Part shown: positions 30,870 through 53,227 of the stretch, piece after piece | Numbering within the stretch: position 1 is the stretch's first letter | Layout: each line of letters begins with the position of its first letter | NCBI GenBank assembly: GCA_035263125.1 | Contig: DATFRP010000196.1 | Span: 22,551 to 86,550 of the forward strand | DNA: 64,000 bases | Source: Vicinamibacterales bacterium | GTDB taxonomy: Bacteria > Acidobacteriota > Vicinamibacteria > Vicinamibacterales > UBA2999 | Direction of reading: 5' to 3' | Notes under the pieces: generated by a model | What the model was told of the DNA's origin: nothing | What the model saw: only the letters and a program-made list of their open reading frames with translations | Database searches by the model: none | Program-made: the position numbers and the translations under genes

Positions 30870-30914
30870 GGGCTCTACAGTTTATAAGGTGCCGGGCTGT
30901 GGAAGAATGAAAGG

Positions 30915-35285: not shown

Positions 35286-38200
35286 ATGATGCGCGCACTA
35301 GCCAAAGGCGTGTTGACGTGTCTGTGTCTGGCCTTGTTGCCCGGCGCAGTCTACGCCCAGGCGACTATTCAGGGAGTCGTGAAGGATACGTCAGGCGCGG
35401 TATTGCCTGGCGTGACCGTTGAAGCATCGAGTCCGGTGCTCATTGAGAAAACGAGGTCGACCGTCACTGACGGTTCAGGCCAGTATCAGATCATCAACCT
35501 CCTGCCAGGGACCTACACCGTCACGTTCACGCTGAGCGGGTTCAACGTGTTCAAGCGTGACGGGATCGAACTGAACGGATCGTTCGTGGCGACGCTCAAC
35601 GCCGACATGAAGGTCGGCGCGATCGCTGAAACGATCACCGTCACCGGCCAGACACCGCTCGTCGATGTGCGCAGCGCTGCGGTGCAGAAGGTCGTCACGA
35701 AAGAGATCGTCGACACGGTGCCGACAGGTCGACTCGGCATCAACCTCGCCGCGCTGCAGCCGGGCATCATCCTCGGCGCTGGTGGCTCGGTCGGAGGCGC
35801 CAACACCAATTCGCTGACGTCTCAGGATGTGGGCGGCACTGCCGGCGACACGTTCACCGATCTCGCAATCCACGGCGGCAAGCCGGCGGAACAGCGGCAG
35901 ACGATCGGCGGCCTCTCTGCCGCGACCACAATTCGTTTCGGTGAATCACTGAGCAGCTCGCCCAGCTTCACCGCGATGCAGGAGATGTCGGTCAACACCT
36001 CCGGCGCTGACGCGTCGCTCGCGGGCGGAGGCGTTCAGATCAACTACGTGCCGCGCGACGGCGGCAACACGTTCAAAGGCCTGATGTTCTACTCGGGCGC
36101 CAGCGGCGCGATGCAGGGCACGAACTACACCACCGGCACGAGAGACGCGAGCGGCAATTGCACGCCGGCGGAGAGCATGTTCTGCCGCGGCCTGGTGACG
36201 CAACCCGGTGCGCTGAAAACGGTCTACGACATCAATCCGGGATTCGGCGGTCCGATCTTGAAGGACAAACTGTGGTGGTTCGCGACTGCACGATGGACCA
36301 AGGCCGAGAACTACGTCCCGAACAACTATCCGAACAGGAACTTCGTGGTCGGACAAACCAACCCGACGCTCCTCAACACCGCCACGATGTCCTACGTTCC
36401 CGAGCAGTCGCAGCCGCTCTACACGACACTCGGCGGCGGCGGCTACTTCTGGGAACAGACGGCGCGGCTCTCGTGGCAGATGGACCAGAAGAACAAGTTC
36501 GGCTTCTACTACAACAACAAGAAACGGGAGTACACGAACGCCCTCAACGGTACCGCTCATGAAGCGTTGAACACGACGTACTTCTTCCCGTTCTCCGACA
36601 ACCTGGTGCAGTGGTCGGCGCCACAGACCAACAGGCTCCTGCTCGAGGCCGGCTTCTGGCGTCACCAGGAAACGTGGGGAGGCCGCAGGGCTGCGACCGA
36701 TATCGCGGACCCACTGGCCGTTGGCGTCACCGACAACAACCCGCAGTCGACCGTACCTGGGTACACCCAGTTGATCAACAACTATCACGGCCGCGTCGGC
36801 GCAACCGATACACCGAGCCACAACCCGAACTACCGTGGCAACTTCGCGGCGTCGTACGTGACCGGCTCGCATTCGTTCAAGACCGGTATCGACTTGAACG
36901 GCGCGTTCCGATGGTCGAACAACTTGTCGGTGGTTCCATACAGCTACGTCGTGAGCACCTTGGCGAGCAATGGGGTCGGCGTCGGCATCCCCGTGCCGCA
37001 AAGCCTCTCGCTGCGCTCGGACGGCTGCACCGATCCGCTCGTGCGTCAGGTCAACGGCGGTCTCGTCGGAGGAGACACGACCATCCACGATTGCCCGACG
37101 CCTGCCCTCGGCTCGCCCAACAAGGTGACGAGCGAAGGCGGCATCTTCGCGCAGGACAAGTGGACGATCAATCGCCTGACGTTGAGCGGCGGCATCCGGA
37201 TGGACTGGTTCTTCTCGGAGAACCCGGCGTTCCATCTCGGGCCGTCGCTGCTGACGCCGCTTCGCAACTACGACGTGCCGAAGTTCAGCACGACGCGCTA
37301 CAAGGACTGGACGCCGAAGGCGGCGATGGCCTACGACCTGTTTGGTGACGGCAAGACCGCGCTCAAGGTCAACGTCGGCAAGTACGTGCTGGGGCAGGCG
37401 CTGGTGCTGGGTGGTCTCGCGAGCCAGGCGGGCTACAACATCCAGCTGACATCGTCGCGAACCTGGATCGACAACAACAACAACTTCATTCCTGACTGCG
37501 ATCTGACTCGTAACACCAACCAGGGGCCGGCACCAGGGCAGGAGCCGCAGATCGATACCTGTCTCGCGGCCGTTGGCCCGAACGCCAACTTCTACAGCAA
37601 CACGCTCTTCCCCAACCTCGCGGTGCAGGACGATGCTCGGTACGGATGGGGCAAGCGTCCGTACAGCTGGGAGTTGTCGACGAGCGCGCAGCACGAAATC
37701 GGCCGCGGCGTGTCGGTGAACGGCGGCGTGTTCTGGCGCTGGTTCGGCAACTTCCTCGTGACCGACAATACGTCGGCGACGGTCGAAAACTTCACTGAGT
37801 TCTCGGTCAACCCGTCGGTGATTCCTACTGCTCCGTCCCAGTCCGGCGGTCAGCAGCTGCCGAGCGACATCAACACGGCTCACTTCTACAACCTCAACCC
37901 GGGCGTCCCCGTCACCAACCTGCAGGGGTTGTCAAAGACGATGTTCCCCGGCAGCAACGTGTATGACCACTGGTTCGGATTCGACCTCGGTCTGAATGCG
38001 CGGCTGCCACAGGGCATCATCTTCCAGGGCGGTCTCAGCACCGGTCATCAGACGACCGACTACTGCGACGTCCAGGATCCGGCAAAGGCTGGCACCAAGG
38101 CGCTCGTCGAAATGCTCGGCGCCTCGTCGCTCAATACCTGTCACATGGATCAGAACTGGTTGCCGCAGGTGAAGTTCCTCGGCTCGTACACCGTGCCGAA

Positions 38201-38621
38201 GATCGACGTGCAGATCGGCGCGTCGTTCCAGAGCATTCCGGGCGTCGAGTACGCCGCGAACTACGCAGCGGCAAACTCAACGACTCCCGATCCGACCAAC
38301 GCGGCCAACATCGGTCTGTCGCGGCCGGTCTCACAAGGAGGTCTCGGTCGACTGCCATCGGGAGGCGCGGCAACCGGCACGACCACGCTCAGCCTGATTC
38401 AGCCAGGCTCGCTCTACGGTTCGCGCTTCAATCAGATCGACGCGCGCTTCGGAAAGGTCGTCCGATTCGCCCAGCGCCGGGCGGTGGTGAGTCTCGATCT
38501 GTTCAACGTGCTCAACGCCGACACGATCGCACTGGCAAGCAGCACCTATGCAACGTGGCTTGCACCTCAGGCCGTCGTTGCGCCTCGTCTGATGAAAGTC
38601 TCGTTGACGTTCGACTTCTAA
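35286..38621 (+). CDS. Large TonB-dependent receptor-like outer-membrane protein with N-terminal CarboxypepD_reg-like domain (receptor 1, 1111 aa)
   Basis: Signal peptide MMRALAKGVLTCLCLALLPGAVYAQA; GVVKDTSGAVLPGVTVEASSPVLIEKTRSTVTDGSGQYQIINLLPGTYTVTFTLSGF; C-terminal barrel signature ...KVSLTFDF. RBS GGGAGG lies before ATG 35286. The ORF-track start at 34737 is an artefactual extension. Confidence 0.8.
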   Translation: MMRALAKGVLTCLCLALLPGAVYAQATIQGVVKDTSGAVLPGVTVEASSPVLIEKTRSTVTDGSGQYQIINLLPGTYTVTFTLSGFNVFKRDGIELNGSFVATLNADMKVGAIAETITVTGQTPLVDVRSAAVQKVVTKEIVDTVPTGRLGINLAALQPGIILGAGGSVGGANTNSLTSQDVGGTAGDTFTDLAIHGGKPAEQRQTIGGLSAATTIRFGESLSSSPSFTAMQEMSVNTSGADASLAGGGVQINYVPRDGGNTFKGLMFYSGASGAMQGTNYTTGTRDASGNCTPAESMFCRGLVTQPGALKTVYDINPGFGGPILKDKLWWFATARWTKAENYVPNNYPNRNFVVGQTNPTLLNTATMSYVPEQSQPLYTTLGGGGYFWEQTARLSWQMDQKNKFGFYYNNKKREYTNALNGTAHEALNTTYFFPFSDNLVQWSAPQTNRLLLEAGFWRHQETWGGRRAATDIADPLAVGVTDNNPQSTVPGYTQLINNYHGRVGATDTPSHNPNYRGNFAASYVTGSHSFKTGIDLNGAFRWSNNLSVVPYSYVVSTLASNGVGVGIPVPQSLSLRSDGCTDPLVRQVNGGLVGGDTTIHDCPTPALGSPNKVTSEGGIFAQDKWTINRLTLSGGIRMDWFFSENPAFHLGPSLLTPLRNYDVPKFSTTRYKDWTPKAAMAYDLFGDGKTALKVNVGKYVLGQALVLGGLASQAGYNIQLTSSRTWIDNNNNFIPDCDLTRNTNQGPAPGQEPQIDTCLAAVGPNANFYSNTLFPNLAVQDDARYGWGKRPYSWELSTSAQHEIGRGVSVNGGVFWRWFGNFLVTDNTSATVENFTEFSVNPSVIPTAPSQSGGQQLPSDINTAHFYNLNPGVPVTNLQGLSKTMFPGSNVYDHWFGFDLGLNARLPQGIIFQGGLSTGHQTTDYCDVQDPAKAGTKALVEMLGASSLNTCHMDQNWLPQVKFLGSYTVPKIDVQIGASFQSIPGVEYAANYAAANSTTPDPTNAANIGLSRPVSQGGLGRLPSGGAATGTTTLSLIQPGSLYGSRFNQIDARFGKVVRFAQRRAVVSLDLFNVLNADTIALASSTYATWLAPQAVVAPRLMKVSLTFDF

Positions 38622-38678
38622 AGGTAGATAGGTCCGCCTTCGCCGTTTGGGCTTCGGCGAGACGCAGGGCAAGTGGGG

Positions 38679-38715
38679 GCGGGTAAGGCCGCAAGGTCTT
38701 ACCCGCTCTTTTTTT
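38679..38715 (+). terminator. Rho-independent terminator after receptor 1
   Basis: A 12-bp stem gcgggtaaggcc / ggtcttacccgc (one G:U) with a GCAA tetraloop, followed by tcttttttt. Confidence 0.8.
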
Positions 38716-38736
38716 GAGTAACATCCGATCGTCCAC

Positions 38737-40509
38737 GTGTCATTTCCCAGGTACTCCGTTCTTGCTGCCGCGCTGTGTGTCGCCTGCGCGGCGTGTGGAT
38801 CCACTCCCCCTCAGAGCCCCGCGCCCACACCGAAGGCGAACTCCGCGCTCGAGATCAAGGGAGACTGGTTCACGGAACGCGCCGAGGAGAGCGGGCTCGC
38901 CTTCACGCATGTCAACGGCATGTCGGGCAAGTTCCATTACGCCGAGATCATCGCGCCCGGCGCTGCGCTGTTCGACTACGACAACGACGGAGACCTGGAC
39001 GTCTACCTCGTGCAGGGCTCGGAATTCGGGAAGCCAGGTCCGGGCGGTCGTTTGTTTCGCAACGATCTCCTCGTCAATCCTGACGGCACGCGCACGCTTC
39101 ATTTCACTGACGTCACCGCCGCGAGCAGAATCGTTGCTCGCGGATATGGGATGGGTGCGGCGACCGGTGACATCAACAACGATGGCTGTCTCGATCTGTA
39201 TCTGACCAACCTCGGGGCCAATCAGCTGTTTCGCAACAACTGCGATGGCACGTTCACCGATGTCTCGAGGCAGAGCCGCACTGATAGTGCATCATGGAGC
39301 GTCTCGGCCTCGTACTTCGATTACGACCGTGACGGATGGCTCGATCTGTTCGTCGGCAATTATCTGAACTGGCGCGTCGAATCGAGCCAGCCGTGCTTCA
39401 GCGCGTCGGGGAGACCCGATTACTGTTCACCTAACGTGTACCAGCCGCAGCCGAGCCGCCTGTATCACAACAATCGCGACGGCACGTTCACCGATGTCAG
39501 CAACGCCTCGGGCATCCTGCACGAGTTCGGACCTGCGCTCGGCGTCTCGGCTGCCGACTTCAACGGCGACGGGTGGATAGACTTCTACGTGGCCAACGAT
39601 GGCCAGCCCAATCAGCTGTGGATCAATCAGCACGACGGCACGTTCAGGAACACCGGGCTGCTGTCGGGCACTGCGCTGAGCGCGCACGGGAAAGCCAAAG
39701 CGGGCATGGGGGTCGCCGCCGGCGACATCGACAACGACGGCGACGAAGATCTGTTCGTGACCAACCTGACTGGCGAGGGGAACGACCTGTACATCAACGA
39801 TGGCTCCGGTCTGTTCGAGGAACAGAGCGGGCGCTCCGGCCTGGGCGCCCCCAGCCGCGGGTACACCGGCTTCGGGACAGCATGGTTCGACATCGACAAC
39901 GACGGCTGGCTCGATACGCTCATCGTCAATGGCGCGGTGCAGACCATCGAGGCGCTCAGGCGAGTGAACGACCCCTTTCCGCTGCATCAGCGCAAGCTGC
40001 TGTTTCACAATCTGCGAAACGGTCGATTCGAAGATGTCAGCGCGCGCGGCGGTGCGGCGTTCGCGTTGTCAGAGGTCGGCCGCGGCGCGGCGTTCGGCGA
40101 TATCGACAACGATGGTGATGTCGACGTGCTCGTGGCCAACAACAACGGCAGGCCGCGGCTGCTCGTCAACAACATCGGCACTCGCAATCACTGGATCGGC
40201 CTCCGGCTGGTCGGGCAAGTCCGCCTGAAGGCGGACACTACATCCGATGTAGTGTCCGGCTCTAGCCGGACCCGCGACATGCTCGGAACGCGCGTTGGGG
40301 TCGTCCTCGACAACGGATCAACGCTGTGGCGACGGGCCCACTCGGACGGGAGCTATGCATCGGCCAGCGATCCTCGCGTGCTCGTCGGGCTCGGGCAGTC
40401 GACGAGTGCTCCTCGCGTGCGGGTCGTGTGGCCTGACGGCAAGACCGAAGAATGGACGACGGTCGCCATCGATCGGTACACCACGCTCGCAGAAGGCACC
40501 GGCAAATGA
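38737..40509 (+). CDS. CRTAC1-family lipoprotein: 7-bladed FG-GAP/VCBS beta-propeller + ASPIC/UnbV C-terminal domain (pair 1)
   Basis: Lipobox-like N-terminus MSFPRYSVLAAALCVACAACGS. Seven Ca-binding-type blades (DYDNDGDLDVYLV, GDINNDGCLDLYL, FDYDRDGWLDLFV, ADFNGDGWIDFYV, GDIDNDGDEDLFV, FDIDNDGWLDTLIV, GDIDNDGDVDVLV). UnbV-like end (NHWIGLRLVG...GSYASASDPRVLVGLG). GTG start. Confidence 0.8.
   Translation: MSFPRYSVLAAALCVACAACGSTPPQSPAPTPKANSALEIKGDWFTERAEESGLAFTHVNGMSGKFHYAEIIAPGAALFDYDNDGDLDVYLVQGSEFGKPGPGGRLFRNDLLVNPDGTRTLHFTDVTAASRIVARGYGMGAATGDINNDGCLDLYLTNLGANQLFRNNCDGTFTDVSRQSRTDSASWSVSASYFDYDRDGWLDLFVGNYLNWRVESSQPCFSASGRPDYCSPNVYQPQPSRLYHNNRDGTFTDVSNASGILHEFGPALGVSAADFNGDGWIDFYVANDGQPNQLWINQHDGTFRNTGLLSGTALSAHGKAKAGMGVAAGDIDNDGDEDLFVTNLTGEGNDLYINDGSGLFEEQSGRSGLGAPSRGYTGFGTAWFDIDNDGWLDTLIVNGAVQTIEALRRVNDPFPLHQRKLLFHNLRNGRFEDVSARGGAAFALSEVGRGAAFGDIDNDGDVDVLVANNNGRPRLLVNNIGTRNHWIGLRLVGQVRLKADTTSDVVSGSSRTRDMLGTRVGVVLDNGSTLWRRAHSDGSYASASDPRVLVGLGQSTSAPRVRVVWPDGKTEEWTTVAIDRYTTLAEGTGK
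40219..40271. repeat. Three abutting perfect hairpins inserted in-frame in the CRTAC1 (pair 1) coding sequence
   Basis: gtccgcc-tgaa-ggcggac (40219-40236), acactacat-ccg-atgtagtgt (40235-40255) and gtccggc-tcta-gccggac (40254-40271). They encode VRLKADTTSDVVSGSSRT, a segment absent from the paralog at 47661-49352. Confidence 0.8.
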
Positions 40510-41855
40510 TGCGCACGGCGCGATGGGTCGCGACCACCCTCGTCCTCTCCCTGCTGACGGTCGCCTGCTCGTCGGGATCGAAGGACGCATCGACGACGCC
40601 TGAACAGACTGCGTCGACCGCCTCGCTGCCCGCTGTCTCACTGCCGGACCTTTCCCGCATGGAGCCGTCGGTTCAGAAGCAGATGACCGAACAGTCGAAG
40701 GTGTTGACCACGCTCGTCGCCGACCGGAAGACACCTCCGGCCGATCTCGCGAAGGCCTACGGAGCCGTCGGCAACCTGCTGATGGCGGCTGACTACAACG
40801 AAGCCGCGGAACCCTACTACCTCCACGCGCAGTCGCTCGCGCCCACCGTTGCGAAGTGGCCGTACTACCTCGGACACGTGTACATGGCGATGGCCCAACC
40901 GACGAAGTCGATCGCATCGTTCGAGCAAGCGCTCGCGTTGCAGCCGAACGACATCGCCACGCTGGTGTGGCTGGGCAGCGTCTATCTCGATCAGGGACAG
41001 CCCGAGCTGGCGGAGCCGCGCTTCGCGCAGGCGCTTGCGGTACAGCCTCAAACAGTAGCGGCGCGATTCGGTCTCGGTCGCGCAGCACTCGCTCGACGCG
41101 ACTACGCGCGGGCGGTCGAACAATTCGAGCAGGTGCTATCGGCCGATCCGCGTGCCTCGATCGCACACTATCCGCTCGCACAGGCCTATCGCGCTCTCGG
41201 GGACACCGCGAGGGCGGAGGCGCATCTGCGTCAGCAAGGCAGTGTGGAAGTGGGGCCGCCGGATCCGCTGATGGTGGAGCTGCGCGGTCTCCTGCACAGC
41301 TCGGTGGCCGAAGAGAATCGCGGCATGCGCGCGCTCGACAGCGGCGACTTCAAGGCCGCGGTCGAACACTTCCGCAAGGGCGTCGAGCTTGCGCCCGACA
41401 ATCCATCGCTTCGACACAAGCTGGGAACGGCGTTGTCGCTGATGGGCGATACCGCGGGCGCAGTCGAACAGTTTCGAGAGACGGTGCACCGATCGCCGGA
41501 CTTCGCGCAGGCGCACTACAGCCTCGGTGTACTGCTGGCCGCACACGGCCAGACGAAGGACGGAATCGAACAGCTGTCAGCCGCGGTACGGTACGACCCG
41601 AACTACGTCGACGCTCGTCTTCGATTGGGCGAAATGCTTGGACGCACCGGACAGTTCGAACAGGCGCTGGCGCAGTACAAGCAGGTGCTCGCGATCGATC
41701 CGCGCGTTGCCGATGCGCGGTTCGGATACGCAGGGGCGCTCGTCGGGCTGCGCCGCTATCAGGAAGCGCGCGCGATGCTCGCCGAGTCGTCGAAGCTCTA
41801 TCCCGATCAGCCCAGGTTTGCTGAAGCGTTGGCACGCATGCAGGGTGCGAAATGA
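40506..41855 (+). CDS. TPR-repeat lipoprotein (pair 1)
   Basis: Lipobox MMRTARWVATTLVLSLLTVAC|SS. There are multiple TPR units (e.g. AHYSLGVLLAAHGQTKDGIEQLSAAVRYDPNY). An ATGA start/stop overlap links it to the upstream CRTAC1 gene. It is paralogous to the TPR genes at 49369 and 46069. Confidence 0.8.
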   Translation: MMRTARWVATTLVLSLLTVACSSGSKDASTTPEQTASTASLPAVSLPDLSRMEPSVQKQMTEQSKVLTTLVADRKTPPADLAKAYGAVGNLLMAADYNEAAEPYYLHAQSLAPTVAKWPYYLGHVYMAMAQPTKSIASFEQALALQPNDIATLVWLGSVYLDQGQPELAEPRFAQALAVQPQTVAARFGLGRAALARRDYARAVEQFEQVLSADPRASIAHYPLAQAYRALGDTARAEAHLRQQGSVEVGPPDPLMVELRGLLHSSVAEENRGMRALDSGDFKAAVEHFRKGVELAPDNPSLRHKLGTALSLMGDTAGAVEQFRETVHRSPDFAQAHYSLGVLLAAHGQTKDGIEQLSAAVRYDPNYVDARLRLGEMLGRTGQFEQALAQYKQVLAIDPRVADARFGYAGALVGLRRYQEARAMLAESSKLYPDQPRFAEALARMQGAK

Positions 41856-41877
41856 GTAGTGTGGGCTCTGCCCCGCT

Positions 41878-42822
41878 CTAGGCCCTCAGCGCTGTCACTC
41901 CCCGGCTGACCGGCACACGTCTCGGCTGTGGATACTCGTGCCACACGCACTCGAGGAATTGACGCACCAGTCGTGACGCCTCGCCCCTGCGACTCGCGAC
42001 ACACACTTCGATCGTGGCGCCCGGATCGGCGACAGGCAGGACTGCCACACCGCTCGCCGGCTGAGGACTGGTGAGCGGAACACCGAGGCAGAGGTAGACG
42101 CCTTTCCCGGACGCAACGAGCATCAACCCGGCGTGATTGTATGGACCGGCACCAGGCGTCGGTGTCATCGTCGGGTTCACTCCTGCGCGTGCATAGAGAT
42201 CGAGGACGCGATCGTACAGCGCCGGCCCGATGTGGCGATCCCAGAGCAGCAGCGGCGTCTCGGCAAGGTCGCGGATCCGCACTTCTTCGAGCGCCGCGAA
42301 CGGACTGTCGTCACCGACGACTGCTTGAATGCGCTCGTGATAGATCGGCGCGACGTCGAGGATGGTCTGATCGAGCGGCGGACGCGCGAACACGACATCC
42401 AGCTGGGAGCTGCGCAGCTGCTCGTGCAGATCGTCGGCGCAATAGACGTCCCGTACTTCGAACGTGACGTCGGGTCGCTGCTTCGTGAACTCGACTCGAA
42501 GACGATTGACCACATCCCAGAGGCCCCACCCGATCCCGATGCGGATGCGATTCTCTTCGCCGCGCGCCATTTGACGCGCGGCCTCGCAGAAGTCGCTTCC
42601 AGCCGCGTCGAGCGCGCGCGCTTTCTCGAGCAGACGCTTGCCGTCCTCGGTGAGCGTGACCCCTTGCCGGTGCCGGAGAAACAGCGTCAATCCGAGCTCT
42701 TCCTCGAGCTGATGGATGTGACGGCTGAGTGGAGGCTGGGAGATGTGGAGACGCTCGGCGGCCTTCGTTACGCTCAGGGCGTCGGCAACAGCGATGAACG
42801 CTTTAATGTGCCGGAAGTCCAT
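41878..42822 (-). CDS. LysR-family transcriptional regulator
   Basis: N-terminal HTH MDFRHIKAFIAVADALSVTKAAERLHISQPPLSRHIHQLEEELGLTLF plus a LysR substrate-binding domain. It is divergent from receptor 2. Confidence 0.9.
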   Translation of the reverse strand: MDFRHIKAFIAVADALSVTKAAERLHISQPPLSRHIHQLEEELGLTLFLRHRQGVTLTEDGKRLLEKARALDAAGSDFCEAARQMARGEENRIRIGIGWGLWDVVNRLRVEFTKQRPDVTFEVRDVYCADDLHEQLRSSQLDVVFARPPLDQTILDVAPIYHERIQAVVGDDSPFAALEEVRIRDLAETPLLLWDRHIGPALYDRVLDLYARAGVNPTMTPTPGAGPYNHAGLMLVASGKGVYLCLGVPLTSPQPASGVAVLPVADPGATIEVCVASRRGEASRLVRQFLECVWHEYPQPRRVPVSRGVTALRA

Positions 42823-42836
42823 GGGGGCCGGATTCT

Positions 42837-42851
42837 ATACCAAATCCGTAT
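42837..42851. promoter_or_regulatory. Candidate LysR-type regulator binding site ATAC-N7-GTAT (T-N11-A class)
   Basis: ATACcaaatccGTAT lies 15 nt upstream of the LysR start in the 124-bp divergent region. A second dyad, ACAT-N6-ATGT, is at 42858-42871. ATAC-N7-GTAT is the known core for CatR/BenM-type LTTRs. Confidence 0.45.
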
Positions 42852-42946
42852 ACCTGCACATTGAAAGATGTATTGGACAGTTGCGGCCGAACGCGCGAGG
42901 GTATGCGCGTCAGAGTCACGGTGGTGCGGCTCAAGGAGAGGTGTGC

Positions 42947-45900: not shown

Positions 45901-46009
45901 CGGAGAGAACTTCGCATACACACCGCCAGGCGTCATCCCCGGCTGGACATCGCCGACGTCGATCCTGCTCCCACGTCTCTTCAAGATCAGCGCCCAGTTC
46001 GACTTCTAG
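42947..46009 (+). CDS. Large TonB-dependent receptor-like outer-membrane protein with N-terminal CarboxypepD_reg-like domain (receptor 2, 1020 aa)
   Basis: Signal peptide MSPMKHLLLAITIVLSVPLAASAQA; GTVKDPSGGVLPGVTVEASSPVLIEKVRTGVTDGTGRYTIPDLRPGTYRVTFALSGF, nearly identical to receptor 1 here; it ends ...KISAQFDF. RBS AAGGAGAG lies before ATG 42947. Confidence 0.8.
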   Translation: MSPMKHLLLAITIVLSVPLAASAQATLSGTVKDPSGGVLPGVTVEASSPVLIEKVRTGVTDGTGRYTIPDLRPGTYRVTFALSGFKTVVREGVVLTGTAVFDASAELAVGNLQETITVTGETPVVNLESTTRQAVMDQAIVTAIPSSRTPFTVGVLIPGVRKGAFTGQDVGGSVVQEVASLEANGGRTSDQRMMVNGVALSSMIAGGWGGGAVPNATGTAEFAIDVSAVDAQAATGGVRINFIPRDGGNRYSGAIFASYANQDFASDNFTGSDVQKAGLAVPGTIKANGDLNPGFGGPIQKDKLWFFLSGRSLFADNYVASTFFNQNANNPNRYDYVPSTNQAILHQEQTIYQARLTWQAAPKHKIGLTYDQENFCACTTGIGPGIGGAITSPEAGNDRRFPLQRFVTMDWSTPVSNRLLVEASAIHRVERWGGMEPQVGKLGNIDHLTPGMISVTDSLNPVTGGGLTYRAATSYNNSWNWNIHYRAAVSYITGSNQFKVGFNNAYGHHENTTYSSPAAPYSYGFTSMVPTSITYQLVPRTVEVNVNRDMGLFAQDKWTTGRWTLAGAIRWDSFANSFPPQGISGTFFGRNVNIQYDKIDNLSWNDITPRLGATYDVFGNGKTALKVTLNKYLEGLGTTGFGPAQVTDAPNPILSLSTTAGRPWADANSNFVPNCDLNNFALNGECGALDNPNFGSLIPTRSYDPDLMKGWGKRSFNWEFTTSVQHEIIPRMSIDVQYARRWYGNIRIMDDLAAKASDYTPVTVTAPSDSRLPNGGGYPLTVMNLSPTVAAQNYFVTLSNNYGKQTEHFDGVNVTLNARLQNGLLLQGGMGTGRQVTNDCAVVDQLPEMLHTFFGDPTRLFFFAARPKEFCEQNNGFMTSIQGLAAYTLPKIDVQISGSFQNLPGAVVQANANYTGLPPGAIPGSISGAYPFIPFKAVQIVDPGQLYIERLNQIDLRLSKIFRINNTRTNINFDFYNVTNSNSIIGENFAYTPPGVIPGWTSPTSILLPRLFKISAQFDF

Positions 46010-46013
46010 GAAT

Positions 46014-46037
46014 CAGGAGGCAGGAGGAATCAGGGAA
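46014..46037. repeat. Degenerate CAGGAxx heptamer repeat (CAGGAGG CAGGAGG aat CAGGGAA)
   Basis: Read directly, immediately after the receptor 2 stop and abutting the terminator hairpin. Confidence 0.55.
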
Positions 46038-46070
46038 GGCCGGTCCATTCGGACCGGCCTTTTCCTTTTC
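46036..46070 (+). terminator. Rho-independent terminator after receptor 2 (hairpin shared with the convergent TPR gene)
   Basis: An 11-bp stem aaggccggtcc / ggaccggcctt with loop attc, followed by ttccttttc on the plus strand. There is no T-run on the minus strand. Confidence 0.75.
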
Positions 46071-47649
46071 ATGGCCGGCACGAAGGGGATTCGTACTTCT
46101 TCGACTCGGCCTTCAGGCGCGCGGCCTCCTGTGAGTCTTTTGCGCGAGTGGCCTCGTTGACCGCGCGTTGCATCGTATCGCGCGCCTCCGCGCACCGACC
46201 CAACTCCGCAAGAGCGATCGCGATCGTCTCGGTGTGAACCGGCGACGGCTCTGCCTTGCTCACGGCAGTCGCCAGGTCGAGCGCCCGCCGACCATCACGG
46301 AGCGATGCGTCCGGTGATGAAGCGAGCAGCCGCGCGAGCGTCGTTGCCGTCGTCGTACGCTCGGGGAATGCCGCGTTCGCTTCGTCGAGCAGCGCGATTG
46401 CGTCGCGAAATCGTCCTCGATCAGCAAGCAGGATTGAGAGCGCCACCGTCGACGCCTCGTCATCGGGGCGTGATGACCGTGATGCCGTCAGCACGTCGAT
46501 CGCCTCGCCCGGCCGCTCGAGTCGCACGAGCACGCCGACCAGGGCCGCACCGACACCAGCTTCGTCAGGCGCTGCTTTGAACGCGGCTTGCAGGTGGGGC
46601 AACGCCTCCCGATCGCGACGCTGTCCGACCAGCAAGAGGCCAAGACCGGCGTGCGCGGTGGCATTGTCGGCGTCGCGGGCGAGCGCGGCCTCGAACTCGT
46701 CGATCGCGTCTCCGATCTTCCCCAACCTTGCGAGCGTCGATCCGAGATTGACGTGAGCGGTCACGCTCGACGGCGACGCCGCGAGCACCTTTCGAAACGC
46801 GTCGGCGGCTTCCTGAAACTGGCCGGCATCGTACAAACGTCTCCCCTGCATCACGAGGGCATGCTCACCGCGCAGCAGCGACGCGAGACTATCGACCACC
46901 GAATCGGCGACCCGGACATCGTTCGAGCCTCGGCGCTCGAGATGTGCGCGGGCGTCGTCCATGCGGCCCAATCCGCGATACGCCATCGCCAGCGAGTAAT
47001 GGACGCTCGTCGCCTGCGGCACGCGATCGAGCACCGCTCTGAAGAGATCGACGGCGTCGGAGAATCGGCCCTCGCGCAGCGCGACCTCGCCGAGCCCGCG
47101 ACGAGCGACGGCAGGGAACGTATCGATCACGCGCTGGTACTCGTCGCGCGCGTCGTGCAGACGATTCAGCCCGAGGTACACCTCGCCAAGACGCACGGTG
47201 ACCGTCGGATCGTCCGGACGGATCCGGCGCGTGGCGAGCAATGATGCAGTGGCTTCCTCGAGCCGACCGGTCTGCTGATACAGGTATCCAAGCAGGTGCG
47301 GCCATCGCGCATCGCTATCCGCAAGACGCGAGGCGTTGACGTACGCCGCTTCCGCCGAATCGAAGAACTCGTAGGCGTGATACACACGGGCCAGCGATCC
47401 GTAGGCGTCGGCGAGCGCTTTCGAAGACGCATTCTGGGTCGTGGCCTGAAGAACGACCTGTTGAGCCTCGCGAAGCTGATCGACAACGGAAGCGTCGAGG
47501 CCATCGAGTCGAGGGATCGGTACTGGCGCGAGATTCGCTCTCGCCGGCGCGATCGTCGACACATCGGGCGTCTGAGGCGCGGCGCGCACGGATCCGCCCC
47601 AGATCGCGCCTGCAAGCACCAACCCGGCGACCGATCGGAAGCGTGACAT
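46069..47649 (-). CDS. TPR-repeat secreted protein (pair 3)
   Basis: Signal peptide MSRFRSVAGLVLAGAIWGGSVRA|AP. It has TPR units throughout and shares an N-terminal non-TPR block with the other two TPR genes (...LADAYGSLARVY...RWPHLLGYLY). It starts 11 nt after the CRTAC1 stop at 47661. Confidence 0.8.
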   Translation of the reverse strand: MSRFRSVAGLVLAGAIWGGSVRAAPQTPDVSTIAPARANLAPVPIPRLDGLDASVVDQLREAQQVVLQATTQNASSKALADAYGSLARVYHAYEFFDSAEAAYVNASRLADSDARWPHLLGYLYQQTGRLEEATASLLATRRIRPDDPTVTVRLGEVYLGLNRLHDARDEYQRVIDTFPAVARRGLGEVALREGRFSDAVDLFRAVLDRVPQATSVHYSLAMAYRGLGRMDDARAHLERRGSNDVRVADSVVDSLASLLRGEHALVMQGRRLYDAGQFQEAADAFRKVLAASPSSVTAHVNLGSTLARLGKIGDAIDEFEAALARDADNATAHAGLGLLLVGQRRDREALPHLQAAFKAAPDEAGVGAALVGVLVRLERPGEAIDVLTASRSSRPDDEASTVALSILLADRGRFRDAIALLDEANAAFPERTTTATTLARLLASSPDASLRDGRRALDLATAVSKAEPSPVHTETIAIALAELGRCAEARDTMQRAVNEATRAKDSQEAARLKAESKKYESPSCRP

Positions 47650-47660
47650 GATGCGGTCGA

Positions 47661-49352
47661 CTAAGACGCCTTCGCGGCCTTGCCGCGTTCGAGGATCCAA
47701 TACCGATCGACGGCAAGGCCGCGGAATTCCTCGACGTCCCCCGGTCCCCATTGCACGCGAACCGTCTGCATCGATTGATCGTCGCCGAGCCCGAACATCA
47801 CTCGTGGATCGCTGGCGGTGCAGTAACTGCCGTCGACCTGAACACGACGCACGACGTTACGACCTCCGCGACCCGCAAGCTCGACACGCGACTGCAGCGC
47901 GTCGCGGTGATAGCGGGGATCGATCGCACGGACACCGAGCCAGTGGCCGCGCGCCCTGACCTCGTTCATCAGCACTCTCGCCGGACCACTGTTGTTGAAG
48001 ATGACGATGTCGATGGAGCCGTCGTTGTCGAGGTCGCCGGCCGCAATCCCGCGAGCGACCTGCATCGGTGCGAACGCGGGCCCGGCGGCGGCGCTGACAT
48101 CCACGAACGTCCCTCGCCGATCGTTGTGAAACAGCTGGCTCCGCTGCTTGAGTGGATAAGGGTCGCCCTTCTGCACCTGGGCGCTCAGATGCCTGACGGC
48201 ACCATTCGCGACGATCAGATCGAGCCAGCCATCGCTGTCGTAGTCGATGAAGCGCGTGCCGAAGCCGGTGAAGCCGAGTTTGAAGAGTCCGTGTTCGACC
48301 GTGCGATCTTCGAACAACCCCCGGCCGACGTTGACGTAGAGCGTGTTGGCCTCGTTGTCGAGATTGGTGACGAACAGATCCTCGTCCCCATCGCCGTCGA
48401 TGTCTCCAAGGTCGATACCCATGCTCCCCTGTGCCTGGCCTGCACGATTGAGCGCCACACCGGCCAGCAGCCCTTCGTCCTTGAACACGCCCGTGCCCTG
48501 CTGGTTGATCCAGAGGCGGTTGGGATCGCCGTCGTTGGCCACATAGATGTCGATCCATCCATCGCCGTTGATGTCCGACGCGAGCACGCCAAGCCCTCGT
48601 GCCGGTGACCGCGTGAGGCCCGCACGCGCCGAGACATCCGAGAACGTTCCGTTGCGATCGTTGTGCAGCAGTCGATCGGCGACCGGCGGATACACAACGG
48701 GATTGCAGTAGTCCCGCGCCGAGCCCGCCGAAAAACAGGTGCGCTTCATGTCCGCGCGGAAGTCGACGTAGTGCGCGACGTACAGATCGAGCCAGCCGTC
48801 GCGGTCGTAATCGAAGAACGTCGCGCTCGTACTCCAGCGCTGGTCGCCAGTGCCCGATTTCTCGGTGACATCGGTGAAGGTGCCGTTGCAGTTGTTGTGG
48901 AGCAGCTGATTGCCGCGTAGATGCGTCAGGTACAGATCGACGCACCCATCGTTGTCGAAGTCACCGGTGGCAGCACCCATGCCATAACCGCGCGCGACGA
49001 TGCCACTCGCTTCGGTGACGTCGGTGAAATGAAGCGATCGCGTCCCCGGAGTCACACGAAGATCGTTCCGAAACAAACGCCCCCCGCTCCCTGCCCCCTG
49101 CACGAGGTACACATCGAGATCGCCATCGTTGTCGTAATCGAACAGCGCACCGCCGGCACCGATGACTTCGGGAAGCCGCAACTCACCCGCCGCGCCGTTC
49201 ACGTGGGAGAAGTCGAGACCAGACTCTTTCGTCCTGTCAACGAGGATGGGAGCGTGCTCCTGCGCGGATCCGTCGAACACCGCCAGCGCCGCGAGGCATA
49301 CCACGACGCTCGATGTCAGCCCCGCACGAACGGCCACACACCGGCGCGTCAC
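47661..49352 (-). CDS. CRTAC1-family secreted protein: FG-GAP/VCBS beta-propeller + ASPIC/UnbV domain (pair 3)
   Basis: Same blade series as the other copies (DYDNDGDLDVYLV, GDFDNDGCVDLYL, FDYDRDGWLDLYV, SDINGDGWIDIYV, GDIDGDGDEDLFV, IDYDSDGWLDLIV, GDLDNDGSIDIVI). The UnbV end lacks the palindromic insertion (GHWLGVRAIDPRYHRDALQSRV). Confidence 0.8.
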   Translation of the reverse strand: MTRRCVAVRAGLTSSVVVCLAALAVFDGSAQEHAPILVDRTKESGLDFSHVNGAAGELRLPEVIGAGGALFDYDNDGDLDVYLVQGAGSGGRLFRNDLRVTPGTRSLHFTDVTEASGIVARGYGMGAATGDFDNDGCVDLYLTHLRGNQLLHNNCNGTFTDVTEKSGTGDQRWSTSATFFDYDRDGWLDLYVAHYVDFRADMKRTCFSAGSARDYCNPVVYPPVADRLLHNDRNGTFSDVSARAGLTRSPARGLGVLASDINGDGWIDIYVANDGDPNRLWINQQGTGVFKDEGLLAGVALNRAGQAQGSMGIDLGDIDGDGDEDLFVTNLDNEANTLYVNVGRGLFEDRTVEHGLFKLGFTGFGTRFIDYDSDGWLDLIVANGAVRHLSAQVQKGDPYPLKQRSQLFHNDRRGTFVDVSAAAGPAFAPMQVARGIAAGDLDNDGSIDIVIFNNSGPARVLMNEVRARGHWLGVRAIDPRYHRDALQSRVELAGRGGRNVVRRVQVDGSYCTASDPRVMFGLGDDQSMQTVRVQWGPGDVEEFRGLAVDRYWILERGKAAKAS

Positions 49353-49368
49353 GAGTGCATCTTACCGC

Positions 49369-50988
49369 TCACGCGCCAGGGCGAGGATGGTGCACCGGAT
49401 CGTCGTTGGTCCAGGGAACGCGGCAGGGTCGACCGGCTTCGTACTGCTTGAGTACCTCGGTGAGCCGCGAGACGATTGCTCCGCCGCCACTCTGCCGCGC
49501 CATTGCGATGGCGTCCCGCTGCCAGCGGATCGCTGCCTGAAAGCGTCCGAGCTCCGCCTGCGTCATCGCCATCGTCTCGGCCAGGGCGAGTGTCCGCTGG
49601 CTCTCGAGGAGCCGCGTCATGATCATCTCGGCGCGGGCGCCGTCGCGCACGCGATCGTCGGGCGCGGCCGCCAGCAGGCGCGCCAGCGCGTGCGCGAATC
49701 CCGGCTGATCGGGAAACGCTTTCATGCTGTCCTGCAGACGGTCGCGTGCTTCCTGATAGCGCGCGAGCCGGACGAGCCCGATCGCGTATCCGAAGCTCGC
49801 CTGCGAGACGGCGGGATTGATGCGGATGATCTCGGCGTAATGCGGAAGCGACTCCTGGACGCGGCCATTGCGACGAAGCGCGTTGGCGAGCGTGAAACGG
49901 GCTTCGAGATACGCGGGATCGCTCGCCACGGCCGTCGAGAACGCGGCGATCGCCTCGTCATCGCGGCCGCGCGATTCCATGATGACCCCGATCCCGAAAT
50001 GCGCGCGGGCGAGACCCGGAGACAACCGCACCGCCTCGCGATACTGTTCCAGCGCGCGGTCGGCGTTCCCCTGCATGTACAACGCGGTGCCCAGATTCAG
50101 CCGGGTGAACGCATTGCGCGGCGACAACTCGACGGCCTTCGACAGATTGTCGGCGGCATCGGCCCATTGACGTGCATCGAGCGCCCTGGTCCCGCGGGTT
50201 TCGTAGGCCGCGGCGTTCTGCAGCAGTCCCGCGAGATCGGCCATCAACGGATCCGCCTGCGGCGGATCGACGTCACCGCGCAGCTTCAAATGCGCGTCCG
50301 CTGCTCGCGCGTTGCCAATACCGCGGTAGGCGAGCGCGAGCGGATAGTGCACGCGCGTTGCAGCCGGCGCCACGCGCAACGCGTTCTCGAGAAAGGTCAC
50401 GGCTTGTGAGTACTGCTGCCTGGCCAACGCCACGCGGCCCAATCCAAACGACACTGCCCCCGACTCCGGCGCCAACGATTTCGCCGTCGTCAGCAGTCGC
50501 TCGGCCTCGTCGGTGCGGTTCGCCGCCAGATGCAACTCGGACAGCCACACCAGCGTCGGCACATCGGTCGGCTGCAGCATGAGCACGCGCTCGAATGCGG
50601 TGACCGCACGCGCGTCGTCGTGCTCGAGGCGAAAAACGTGTCCCAGGTAGTACGGCCACTTCATCTCGGAAGGAGCGAGCGTCTGCGCGTTGGTGAGACA
50701 GGCTTCAGCGGCATCATAGAATTCGGCCGCCATGAAGAGCTTCCCCATCTCGCCGTACGCATCCGCAAGTTCGCTCGACGCGACGCCGGGCTTGCCGATG
50801 GCGGCGGTCATCGACTCGTAACGCGCGCGCAGTTGCGTCTGGACCGATTCCGCCGCTGTCGACATGTCGGGCAGAGACACCGTCTTCAGCGACGGCGTCG
50901 CTGGTGCGGCCGGCGCTGATTCGCGGGCCGTATTGCACGCGGTCACGCCAAGAATGCTGGCGGTCGCGAGGGTAACGAGGTATCTCAC
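49369..50988 (-). CDS. TPR-repeat lipoprotein (pair 2)
   Basis: GTG start overlapping the upstream CRTAC1 stop (GTGA). Lipobox MRYLVTLATASILGVTAC|N. Conserved blocks ELADAYGEMGKLFMAAEFYDAAE and KWPYYLGHVF are shared with pair 1. Confidence 0.8.
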   Translation of the reverse strand: MRYLVTLATASILGVTACNTARESAPAAPATPSLKTVSLPDMSTAAESVQTQLRARYESMTAAIGKPGVASSELADAYGEMGKLFMAAEFYDAAEACLTNAQTLAPSEMKWPYYLGHVFRLEHDDARAVTAFERVLMLQPTDVPTLVWLSELHLAANRTDEAERLLTTAKSLAPESGAVSFGLGRVALARQQYSQAVTFLENALRVAPAATRVHYPLALAYRGIGNARAADAHLKLRGDVDPPQADPLMADLAGLLQNAAAYETRGTRALDARQWADAADNLSKAVELSPRNAFTRLNLGTALYMQGNADRALEQYREAVRLSPGLARAHFGIGVIMESRGRDDEAIAAFSTAVASDPAYLEARFTLANALRRNGRVQESLPHYAEIIRINPAVSQASFGYAIGLVRLARYQEARDRLQDSMKAFPDQPGFAHALARLLAAAPDDRVRDGARAEMIMTRLLESQRTLALAETMAMTQAELGRFQAAIRWQRDAIAMARQSGGGAIVSRLTEVLKQYEAGRPCRVPWTNDDPVHHPRPGA

Positions 50989-52769
50989 TTCCCTTCACCC
51001 TGTTTCAGAGTGATGTAGCGATCGACAGGCAGATCCTCCCACATCTCCATTCGCCCGTCGGGCCATCGCAGGCGCACCGCCACGGGGTCGGCCGACTCGC
51101 CCAGCCCGACGAGCACGCGCGGATCGTTGGCGGATGCGTAGCTGCCATCAGCGCGCGAGCGACGCCACAGCGAGCCTCCGCTCTTTCGAACGATCTCCAC
51201 ACGCGCGCCGAGCATGTCTCGCCCGACCTGGGCCGCCTTAAGGCGGCCCCCACGATCGTCGTAGGGGCCGCCCTTAGGCGGCCCAACGAGTCGAAGCCCC
51301 AACCAATGACGCCCTCTCGTGGCCTGATTGATCAGCAGCCGGGCAGGTCCGTTGTTGTTGGCGATCACCACGTCCACGTCGCCATCGTTGTCGATGTCGC
51401 CGAATGCCGCGCCGCGACCGATCTCCGACAACGCAAACGCCGCTCCTGCTTTCCCCGTCACATCCTCGAAACGCGTGCTTCCTCCATTGCGCAGCAACAG
51501 CTTCTTCTGGTGCAGGGGAAACGGATCGCGCGCCTGCCGCAGCGACTCGATGATCTGCACCGTGCCGTTGACGGCCAGCAGATCGAGACGGCCATCGGAA
51601 TCGAAGTCGAACAAGCCGGCACCGAATCCGGTCAGCGCCAGGCTCGCGGGCCCGACCATCGAGGGCGCGCTCGCATCGACGAACAGGCCGTGTCCGTCGT
51701 TCACATAGAGGTTGCTGCCCTCGCCCGTCAGCTCGGTCATCACCAGATCTTCATCGCCGTCATTATCGATGTCGCCCGCGTCGACACCCATGCTGCCTTC
51801 CGCCTTGCCGCTGACCGGAAGCGCGACCCCTGAAGCCAGCGCCACATTCTCGAACGTGCGGTCGTGGCGATTCAGCCAGAGCTGATTCTCCTTGCCATCG
51901 TTCGCGACGTAGATATCCATCCAGCCGTCGCCGTTGAAGTCCGCGGTCGAGACTCCGAGCGCCGGACCAAACTCGGTGGCCACATGAGACGAAGCGGTGA
52001 TGTCGGCAAACGTGCCGTTTCGTCGATTGAGATAGAGCCGATCGGGCAGCGGCGGAAAGCTGCTCGGCGTGCAGTAATCGGGCGCGCCGGTCGGGCTGAA
52101 GCAGGAGCCGTTGCCCGCGAGCGTGTAGCGCAGGTAGTTGCCGACGTAGAGATCCAGCCATCCGTCGCGATCGATGTCCACGAAGGCCGCGGACACGCTC
52201 CACGACTCCAACGCCGTCCCGGTTTCCTTCGCGACGTCCGTGAACGTGCCGTCGCCGTTGTTGCGAAGCATCTGGTTCGGCGCGTTGAACTTCGTCAGGT
52301 AGAGGTCCACCCATCCGTCGTTGTTGAAGTCACCGGCGGCGACACCCATGCCGTAGCCGCGCGCCTCGATCTTGCTCTCGCGGGTCACGTCAGTGAAGTG
52401 AATGGTGCGCGTGCCATCAGGGTTGATCCGCAGATCGTTCCGGAACAACCGATCGTTCTGTCCGGGTCCTCGGCTCCCGAACTGACCGCTTTGTACGAGG
52501 TAGACGTCCAGATCGCCATCGTTGTCGTAATCGAACAATGCGACACCCGGCCCCAGAATCTCCGGCATGTACAAATGGCCCGACATGCCGTTGATGTGCG
52601 TGAAATCGAGACCTGTCTGCGCGGCGCGGTCGACGAACCAGTCGGCTTCACCATCCGAACGCCTGTCGGTCGTCTCCGGACGGGTCGTCGCGGGCTGACT
52701 CCCCGAGCAGCCGGCGAGCAGGAGGAGAAGAACGAGCGGGGTCGGATCGCGTCTGTTGTGCGGCCGCAT
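50985..52769 (-). CDS. CRTAC1-family lipoprotein: FG-GAP/VCBS beta-propeller + ASPIC/UnbV domain (pair 2)
   Basis: Lipobox MRPHNRRDPTPLVLLLLLAGC|SGS (ATG 52769; the ORF-track start at 53066 overlaps the upstream gene). Same seven-blade series. The UnbV end carries an insertion (PPKGGPYDDRGGRLKAAQVG). Confidence 0.8.
   Translation of the reverse strand: MRPHNRRDPTPLVLLLLLAGCSGSQPATTRPETTDRRSDGEADWFVDRAAQTGLDFTHINGMSGHLYMPEILGPGVALFDYDNDGDLDVYLVQSGQFGSRGPGQNDRLFRNDLRINPDGTRTIHFTDVTRESKIEARGYGMGVAAGDFNNDGWVDLYLTKFNAPNQMLRNNGDGTFTDVAKETGTALESWSVSAAFVDIDRDGWLDLYVGNYLRYTLAGNGSCFSPTGAPDYCTPSSFPPLPDRLYLNRRNGTFADITASSHVATEFGPALGVSTADFNGDGWMDIYVANDGKENQLWLNRHDRTFENVALASGVALPVSGKAEGSMGVDAGDIDNDGDEDLVMTELTGEGSNLYVNDGHGLFVDASAPSMVGPASLALTGFGAGLFDFDSDGRLDLLAVNGTVQIIESLRQARDPFPLHQKKLLLRNGGSTRFEDVTGKAGAAFALSEIGRGAAFGDIDNDGDVDVVIANNNGPARLLINQATRGRHWLGLRLVGPPKGGPYDDRGGRLKAAQVGRDMLGARVEIVRKSGGSLWRRSRADGSYASANDPRVLVGLGESADPVAVRLRWPDGRMEMWEDLPVDRYITLKQGEGK
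51230..51284. repeat. Two copies of the gggccgcc-(c)tta(a)-ggcggccc hairpin inserted in-frame in the CRTAC1 (pair 2) coding sequence
   Basis: gggccgcc-ttaa-ggcggccc at 51230-51249 and gggccgcc-ctta-ggcggccc at 51265-51284, separated by a segment containing the palindrome acgatcgt. The same hairpin occurs intergenically at 55588-55607. Confidence 0.8.
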
Positions 52770-52816
52770 CAATCGAGATCGTACCCGCAGGCACGCATCA
52801 AGATCCGGCCCATCGA

Positions 52817-53227
52817 TCAGTGCAGCGTTTCGCGCGAGGGAGCGTCTTTGAGCACGCCGGTCACCGCGCGGTGCGCGAAGACAGCGTCGGGGACTTCCTG
52901 CAGGGCGGTGTAGTACCGCTGTTCGTACGGCGTGCCCTGTTCGTCGGGGGCGACCAGCCGTCGCGCCTGAGCCACGATCGCAGCGACATCCACGACCGTA
53001 TCCGGCTCCTCCGTATCGAGCGTCTGATCGATCCGCACGATGAGTTCGGAGATCGGACGCAGCCATGCAAACTGCGGATCCGAAACGATGACTCGCAAGA
53101 GCTCGCCTTTGGTCACACGGCCGTGCTTGCGTTCGTAGCCCTCACGCTCCCAGTCGAGGAGCGTCTTGTGCAGCGGCAGGAGCGCGCGCCGCAGCTCGCC
53201 GAGCAGTCGGCGATCGGAGTCTTTCAT
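52817..53227 (-). CDS. Hypothetical cytoplasmic protein (136 aa), first gene of the minus-strand CRTAC1/TPR string
   Basis: ORF with start at MKDSDRR (ATG 53227). It has no signal peptide and is predicted helical (LLGELRRALLPLHKTLLDWEREGYERKHG...). I recognise no family. Confidence 0.55.
   Translation of the reverse strand: MKDSDRRLLGELRRALLPLHKTLLDWEREGYERKHGRVTKGELLRVIVSDPQFAWLRPISELIVRIDQTLDTEEPDTVVDVAAIVAQARRLVAPDEQGTPYEQRYYTALQEVPDAVFAHRAVTGVLKDAPSRETLH

Follow-up and report, generated by a model that had tools for sequence, protein, structure and literature searches.

We describe a locus at positions 35286-52769 of a 64-kb window (the whole stretch of DNA that was analysed, 64,000 nucleotides from a Vicinamibacterales bacterium), whose core would be a two-gene operon that is used three times. 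The listing of open reading frames and inspection of the start sites place nine genes in this span. Two code for outer-membrane barrels (R1 and R2), one for a LysR-type regulator and the remaining six form three pairs, each of which encodes a propeller protein related to cartilage acidic protein 1 (CRTAC1; denoted C) and a tetratricopeptide repeat (TPR) protein (denoted T). An earlier sequence-only reading of the same DNA had proposed these nine genes, and all of them are present where it had placed them. R1 is 100% identical to P0121, a protein of a metagenome-assembled genome labelled 'Vicinamibacterales bacterium'.

R1 (1,111 residues, 35286-38621, +) has a signal peptide, a CarboxypepD_reg domain, the motif ETITVTG and an FDF end, and resembles the TonB-dependent transporters (TBDTs) of the Oar subclass. 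A terminator-like hairpin with a 16-bp stem and a T-run (38675-38710, +) lies between R1 and C1 (590 residues, 38737-40509, +), a CRTAC1-family lipoprotein with an FG-GAP propeller and a UnbV_ASPIC domain. The start codon of T1 (449 residues, 40506-41855, +), a TPR lipoprotein, overlaps the stop codon of C1. The lysR gene (41878-42822, -) is convergent with T1 and divergent from R2 (1,020 residues, 42947-46009, +), a paralogue of R1 that shares its N-terminal extension, its ETITVTG motif and its FDF end. The intergenic region shared by lysR and R2 holds an ATAC-N7-GTAT dyad (42837-42851), a LysR box of the T-N11-A type. R2 and T2 are convergent and a second terminator-like hairpin, with a 14-bp stem, is found between them (46033-46064). 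T2 (526 residues, 46069-47649, -), a TPR protein with an ordinary signal peptide, lies 11 nt downstream of C2 (563 residues, 47661-49352, -), a CRTAC1-family protein that likewise has an ordinary signal peptide. The last pair consists of T3 (539 residues, 49369-50988, -), a TPR lipoprotein whose start overlaps the stop of C3, and C3 itself (594 residues, 50985-52769, -), a CRTAC1-family lipoprotein for which 52769 is the likeliest start within an open reading frame that is open to 53066.

The C proteins are 50-59% identical to each other, the T proteins 30-42% and R1 and R2 33%; the paralogues within the window are old. The G+C content (∼ 64% in the window) is flat across the locus, which sits amid housekeeping genes with no obvious island; the genes in the window flanks belong to amino-acid and polyamine metabolism or code for transporters and a peptidase. 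A search for riboswitches or other RNA elements with Rfam over the whole window gave just one tRNA (60893-60977, +).

The C-T pair

C1, C2 and C3 match the Pfam families FG-GAP_3 (E = 1e-46 to 1e-52; FG-GAP is matched as well) and UnbV_ASPIC (E = 4e-12 to 5e-15). Each protein holds seven Dx[DN]xDG motifs at positions that are equivalent in all three, in agreement with the sequence-only reading, which had recognized three CRTAC1/ASPIC-UnbV paralogues with seven blade motifs each. For most of the motifs, conservation among 51 orthologues reaches 70% or more, and the loops that they form are putative Ca2+-binding sites. The AlphaFold2 model of C1 has a mean predicted local distance difference test score (pLDDT) of 83.4 and a predicted TM-score of 0.86. 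Its best Foldseek match is murine CRTAC1 (9etn_A, E = 1.4e-30, TM-scores of 0.68/0.73, 592 columns), which is matched over the full length, followed by fungal propeller lectins that bind N-acetylglucosamine (GlcNAc) and then by integrin alpha-V heads. The similarity to CRTAC1 is also seen at the sequence level (E = 9e-15). Since these fold relatives (CRTAC1, GlcNAc lectins and integrins) are binders and not enzymes, the model makes C look like a binder rather than an enzyme. A pair of Cys residues that is conserved in C (C220 and C230 of C1) would fit an oxidizing compartment. All six C and T products bear predicted export signals of the kinds that had been assigned to them, namely lipobox-like sites in C1, T1, C3 and T3 and plain signal peptides in C2 and T2. 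The family is large: when 1.84 billion cluster representatives were searched with a profile, 16,390 clusters at 50% identity proved to be related to C (E ≤ 1e-30). No NCBIfam family is matched by the R or C proteins.

T1, T2 and T3 match many TPR families in Pfam and all listed matches are to TPR or other helical-repeat families. NCBIfam gives sub-threshold TPR similarities only, and a sequence search of the PDB returned only matches to consensus TPRs and to the TPRs of OGT, which are uninformative. The paralogy of the three proteins and their shared N-terminal block, both noted in the sequence-only reading, hold true, but its description of this block as a non-TPR element was rejected because the block lies largely inside TPR repeats detected by Pfam. 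It is instead part of a family signature that, over 51 orthologues, consists of the two blocks already described together with HY-LA-AYR and DPL...RG, and that is situated within or between the TPR repeats.

The generality of the pair was assessed in a sample of one genome per species (GTDB), which was scanned with peptide patterns derived from C only and yielded 80 loci; the adjacency of T in these loci is therefore unbiased. Profiles of the C, T, R and LysR proteins of the window were then used to search the 80 loci. Most of them come from Acidobacteriota of several orders and a few from genomes labelled Rhodothermales, Phycisphaerae, Schlesneria, Gammaproteobacteria or Anaerolineales. Three contigs binned as Bifidobacteriaceae, Acidimicrobiaceae and Anaerolineales (L031, L057 and L075) carry C-T(-R) loci of the acidobacterial type, with 48-58% identity to C1. 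These contigs are probably mis-binned, and the phylum range of the pair is to be taken cautiously.

An adjacent T gene on the same strand is found for 66 of the 74 strong C genes that have room on both sides. T usually lies downstream of C; in one subfamily it lies upstream, and there its score is weaker. Of the eight C genes without an adjacent T, three belong to C-C-T arrays, and for two others a T-type gene lies at a distance of 2-3 kb. In the reverse direction, a C gene adjoins 65 of the 74 strong T-type hits, so the T profile does not merely collect generic TPR proteins. The proposal that the CRTAC1-TPR pair is the conserved unit is thus borne out beyond the source genome, with co-localization far beyond chance. 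C-to-T junctions show a 4-nt overlap of start and stop codons in 27 of 51 cases and a 1-nt overlap in five more, and these overlaps indicate translational coupling of C and T. Read directly from the sequence, the three junctions of the window (ATGA at 40506-40509, GTGA at 50985-50988 and an 11-nt gap at 47650-47660) are exactly as they had been described. In 27 of 51 pairs, a lipobox-like site is found in C as well as in T.

The distance matrices of C and T are correlated, with an r of 0.864 that was reached by none of 2000 Mantel permutations but is inflated by shared species history. A test on the paralogues is independent of that history: for each of the three pairs in the window, the nearest C and the nearest T belong to one and the same foreign pair (3/3). 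C1-T1 is closest to the pair of L002, C2-T2 to L006_4 and C3-T3 to L006_3; the last two are tandem pairs, and L006 has the same C-T-C-T tandem as the window. The three pairs are accordingly ancient lineages in which C and T were duplicated together, and the C-T-C-T tandem is conserved as well.

The two proteins also occur, across many lineages, as a single chain. Among the 150 best C-family representatives there are 14 C-T fusions of ∼ 970-1,190 residues, in which a full-length C is followed, in operon order, by a near full-length T that has the T family signature. A distant clade of at least 37 clusters combines a CRTAC1 propeller with a TPR module at the C-terminus, and this module matches T2/T3 in their C-terminal part; in other distant paralogues the TPRs are N-terminal to CRTAC1, so that fusions exist in both orders. 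Given the conserved adjacency, the start/stop overlaps, the co-evolution and the fusion into one chain, C and T most likely form one two-subunit (1:1) envelope complex.

A different arrangement is seen in P0386 (1,116 residues), where an N-terminal polytopic membrane domain of ∼ 400 residues is followed by a region of TPRs and then by a complete CRTAC1 propeller; by eye, the membrane domain resembles the TMTC/PMT-type glycosyltransferase-TPR proteins. Distant CRTAC1-like paralogues stand beside C-T pairs in L016 (13075-15759, -) and L013 (7763-10693, +). In both, an N-terminal SCO1/SenC domain, which is a copper-chaperone or thioredoxin-like domain, is fused to an FG-GAP propeller, and the L016 protein has UnbV_ASPIC in addition. 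Some of the CRTAC1-like family may, as these fusions hint, be concerned with redox chemistry or metals.

A Pfam census of the 123 immediate neighbours, together with all-against-all clustering, revealed no recurrent third partner, only small lineage-specific groups (a di-haem cytochrome, outer-membrane barrels and methyltransferases). A conserved protein of ∼ 385-460 residues is encoded directly upstream of C in L002 (2-736), L009 (8402-9781), L017 (4199-5356) and L058 (8721-9890), and a fifth member of this group, in L061 (17605-18888), is on the opposite strand at a distance of several kb. Every complete member has two CxxCH motifs, the L002 copy being truncated at the end of its contig. Pfam CytoC_RC is matched by four neighbour proteins, which are probably members of the same group. 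L002 is also the locus that holds the closest relative of C1-T1.

The barrels, the regulator and the surroundings

The only Pfam match in R1 and R2 is CarboxypepD_reg at the N-terminus (PF13620, E = 2e-15 for R1 and 6e-15 for R2). An N-terminal extension of this type defines the Oar subclass of TBDTs (PMC6434023). Further searches at the sequence level failed: phmmer and profile searches of the PDB with R1 and R2 found no TBDT and only a scaffoldin Ig-like match, and an hhalign comparison with the neighbouring classical TBDT (the 621-residue receptor described below) was negative. The fold of R1 was for this reason assigned through structure prediction and Foldseek. The AlphaFold2 model of R1 has a mean pLDDT of 72; most of the barrel is above 70, and residues 106-263 are below 50. 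All 50 listed Foldseek matches in the PDB are TBDTs, the best being FusA (4zgv, E = 3.5e-20), with YddB also among the leading ones. According to the model, R1 has the barrel fold of a TBDT, its plug being unconfirmed, and the TonB-dependent nature that the sequence-only reading had ascribed to the receptor gains support from these matches. A precomputed record of PF25183 (OMP_b-brl_4) is found on the R2 orthologue in L082 and on homologues.

Just after the N-terminal extension, both R1 (residues 115-121) and R2 contain the motif ETITVTG. The TonB boxes of FhuA and BtuB read DTITVTA and DTLVVTA, and ETITVTG resembles them at the level of the motif. Its residues are invariant or nearly so (≥ 90%) in 49 homologues, and a motif of this type is present in 21 of 23 related receptors. 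Of the description given to the two giant receptors, their size, the FDF ends that both share and the CarboxypepD_reg domain stand. That their near-identical N-termini are special to the locus was rejected, since the N-terminal motif E[AS]SSP[AV]LIE[KG] occurs in 15 of the 23 related receptors of other genomes and is thus a signature of the subfamily.

In 18 of the 80 loci the C-T block has an Oar-like barrel within 1 kb, and in 34 there is one anywhere in the flanks. In terms of neighbour slots, 19 of 170 are occupied by an Oar-like barrel within 1 kb (p = 2e-9 if 2% of genes are assumed to code for barrels, p = 6e-5 if 4% are assumed). C1 orthologues with 74-88% identity were found on three contigs (L081, L082 and L083), and in all three R is directly upstream of C-T. 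Two of them (L081 and L082) keep the whole R-C-T-LysR-R-T-C-T layout, with flanks that are otherwise different. In the T-to-C subfamily of other acidobacterial orders, a distant Oar-like barrel is often nearby too. The link between the pair and the barrels appears, from these distributions, to be real but facultative.

The product of lysR matches HTH_1 and LysR_substrate in Pfam. The ATAC-N7-GTAT dyad occurs once in the 64-kb window, where 0.09 occurrences are expected by chance, and lies 15 nt upstream of lysR. The gene is divergent from R2 across this dyad, as the sequence-only reading had observed; its wider claim, that the system has its own LysR regulator, does not extend to the family. 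The LysR profile of the window has no match in the 80 loci (0/80), and among the close relatives L081 and L082 alone have a LysR gene at the same position, the third having none. LysR was rejected as a general part of the system on these grounds, and it is a lineage-specific addition that most likely controls R2.

Several genes outside the nine deserve mention. A conventional TonB-dependent receptor of 621 residues (33282-35147, -) is divergent from R1 and has the Pfam domains Plug and TonB_dep_Rec_b-barrel; its synteny is kept in L081 and its membership of the module is uncertain. Beyond it, at 29601-33153, are genes for homoserine dehydrogenase, a CN_hydrolase similar to N-carbamoylputrescine amidase and agmatine deiminase (polyamine route), a block that is syntenic in L081. 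On the other side, 1.3 kb past C3, a 483-residue exported protein without a Pfam match (54102-55553, +) has a single CxxCH motif (ANCQTCH). A 915-residue M16 peptidase with one M16 and two M16_C domains (56229-58976, -) is encoded 3.5 kb from C3. It matches PqqL with E = 1e-21, and generic half-size M16 enzymes match it better.

Proposed role and alternatives

We propose that C is a secreted, usually lipid-anchored and Ca2+-loaded seven-bladed beta-propeller of the CRTAC1 type, and that T would be its dedicated TPR solenoid, made in a coupled fashion with C and joined to it in a 1:1 envelope complex. By analogy with CRTAC1, the fungal GlcNAc lectins and the integrin alpha heads, we would expect the propeller to bind the ligand, with the TPR subunit serving for docking or as a scaffold. 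The pairs stand beside two putative Oar-subclass TBDTs, one of which would be under LysR control. In the source genome, C-T might then act as an accessory complex that captures a ligand and hands it over to the Oar-type transporters, a suggestion that we make tentatively and to which we give a little less than an even chance. Within it we infer the physical binding of C to T, the Ca2+-dependent binding of a ligand, a joint action with the transporters and the direction in which transport runs. We speculate further that the C-T heterodimer represents an unrecognized class of accessory for Oar-type transporters, an independently evolved counterpart of SusD and the surface-glycan-binding lipoproteins of Bacteroidota, in which a Ca2+-loaded propeller of the integrin or lectin kind captures a macromolecular ligand and the TPR arm docks it to the barrel or to its conserved periplasmic N-terminal extension; in this general form the idea is unlikely to hold. 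The module is widespread and uncharacterized, and a role in uptake is plausible.

A number of observations weigh against a role beside the transporters. Neither Plug nor TonB_dep_Rec is matched by Pfam in R1 or R2 at E values up to 10, although Oar has both domains. At 46 of the 80 loci no Oar-like barrel is present in the fetched flanks. Between 0 and 4 kb from the pair, barrel coverage is only 1.6 times that at 6-10 kb, and at the latter distance barrel genes still account for 6.6% of the DNA as background. The barrels that lie beside pairs elsewhere are 31-35% identical to R1/R2, as compared with a mean identity across the retrieved pairs of ∼ 55% for C and ∼ 36% for T; the pair and the receptor hence do not diversify together in the manner of SusD and SusC. 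The first hairpin separates R1 from C1-T1 and the second follows R2. Pairs are also found on contigs labelled Planctomycetota, Rhodothermales and Gammaproteobacteria, and in the Pfam census no carbohydrate-active enzyme or peptidase (catabolic) family recurs among the 123 neighbours.

The hairpins allow for more than one interpretation. The first ends just 26 nt before the start codon of C1, and C1-T1 may for that reason be expressed by attenuated read-through. It is kept in L081 with base changes that preserve the pairing; L082 has a different hairpin and L083 none. Both hairpins, which are long and G+C-rich and have T-runs, could be attenuators or stabilizers of mRNA 3'-ends that set the ratio of barrel to accessory. 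What is left of the coupling between the pairs and the giant receptors, as it was originally proposed, is the enrichment of barrels near pairs; the coupling is facultative, the receptors are not orthologous and hairpins intervene between R1 and C1-T1.

The many loci without a nearby barrel, the modest proximal enrichment over a high background, the non-orthologous receptors, the terminators between R and C and the pairs in phyla beyond Acidobacteriota would all be expected if C-T were an envelope complex that works on its own, such as a Ca2+-dependent adhesin or a matrix- or cell-wall-binding module with T as its scaffold, and had no functional tie to a transporter. Adjacency would in that case reflect the abundance and clustering of barrels in acidobacterial genomes, and ASPIC/UnbV and TonB receptors are indeed both among the paralogue families analysed in Solibacter (PMC3174227). 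We nevertheless regard such autonomy as somewhat unlikely, because barrels fill 19 of 170 neighbour slots, far more than a plausible gene frequency would give, because the R-C-T order is conserved on three orthologous contigs whose other flanks differ and because the association with barrels is seen in the separate T-to-C subfamily too.

TPR lipoproteins often serve as pilots or chaperones of envelope proteins, and T could be an escort of this kind if C, with or without T, were a periplasmic cargo that leaves the cell through R1/R2. The barrels would then act outward, as does Myxococcus Oar for the protease PopC, with which they share the hallmark CarboxypepD_reg extension and the TonB-box-like motif (PMC6434023). 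Vertebrate CRTAC1 is itself secreted and circulates in plasma (PMC10477339). Such export is improbable: there is just a single known TBDT exporter, a nearby barrel is lacking for many C-T pairs and the lipid anchoring of C and T needs no dedicated exporter. Unlike in the Oar system, no gene for a PopC-like subtilisin cargo is seen among the scanned flanking genes of the window.

A propeller lipoprotein and a TPR lipoprotein linked to outer-membrane barrels are likewise found in the BAM complex (β-barrel assembly machinery), as BamB and BamD. C and T might on this model be assembly or stability factors of the giant barrels, similar to that pair or to TPR pilotins, and the fact that C is more conserved than the receptors would be expected of a generic helper. 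We consider this very improbable, since C, unlike BamB, is an FG-GAP, integrin-like seven-bladed propeller with putative Ca2+ sites and the Pfam matches include no family of the BamB type (eight-bladed PQQ-like propeller) or the BamD type (YfiO-like TPR protein). Many pairs are not near barrels, and three divergent, anciently separated pairs are kept within one genome, which suggests different specificities.

That C is the 'enediyne biosynthesis protein E4', a KEGG-derived label that JGI gives to many homologues, or some other enzyme of secondary metabolism or redox chemistry, to which the distant paralogues fused to SCO1/SenC and the di-haem cytochrome c-like gene upstream of C in several loci might point, is scarcely credible: the label was transferred on the basis of UnbV alone, the fold relatives are binding proteins, and an enediyne function was rejected because the flanking genes are housekeeping genes and the longest open reading frame of the window (1,294 codons, R1) falls short of the length of such a polyketide synthase (∼ 1,900 residues).

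Known systems and significance

C shares with vertebrate CRTAC1 (PDB 9etn) and with bacterial ASPIC-UnbV proteins the FG-GAP and UnbV_ASPIC domains, the full-length fold, the Dx[DN]xDG motifs and export. Unlike vertebrate CRTAC1, the bacterial C is a lipoprotein or periplasmic, and has a dedicated TPR partner that is encoded downstream or fused to it; the papers searched describe neither a partner nor a function for these bacterial proteins. R1 and R2 have in common with the Oar subclass (Myxococcus xanthus Oar, PMC6434023) the CarboxypepD_reg domain, the TonB-box-like motif, a barrel of ∼ 1,000-1,100 residues and, in the case of R1, the predicted TBDT fold. The best structural matches of R1, FusA and YddB, are protein importers that work with M16 proteases (FusC/PqqL), and an M16 gene lies 3.5 kb off. 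This likeness may reflect barrel size only, and the nearby M16 protein is closer to generic M16 enzymes.

In the SusC/SusD and RagA/RagB systems of Bacteroidota, a large TonB-dependent barrel also stands beside helical-repeat and beta-rich lipoproteins, and the logic of the locus is the same. Unlike SusD, however, T is a canonical TPR solenoid, and no SusD-type family is found among the listed Pfam and NCBIfam matches. Unlike in SusC/SusD, the adjacency to a barrel is facultative, the receptors are not co-orthologous and a hairpin lies between R1 and C1. The analogy to SusC/SusD, which the sequence-only reading had drawn, is therefore without support from the membership of the locus: T is a generic TPR protein, no catabolic family recurs and LysR is missing from all 80 loci. 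Judged by its members, the locus is neither a SusC/SusD system nor a BAM accessory pair nor an enediyne cassette.

All parts of the locus come from known families (CRTAC1, TPR, Oar-subclass TBDT-like barrels and LysR). What appears to be new is the obligatory partnership of CRTAC1 and TPR proteins and their recurrent, non-universal placement beside Oar-type barrels. The sequence-only reading knew of no assigned function for the couple, and in the literature that we searched no publication was found that assigns one. The only relevant mention found is that of ASPIC/UnbV among the paralogue families analysed in Solibacter (PMC3174227).

Acidobacteriota are among the most abundant soil bacteria and their genomes are rich in giant Oar-type TonB transporters. 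The molecular mechanism of the vertebrate member of the family, CRTAC1, is poorly understood. The TPR partner provides a testable handle in the form of a two-protein complex that can be expressed, crystallized and probed for ligands. If the link to the transporters holds, the pair would be a new type of accessory for outer-membrane uptake (or export) outside Bacteroidota, and a new accessory class of this kind, if true, would explain part of the large expansion of barrels in soil Acidobacteriota.

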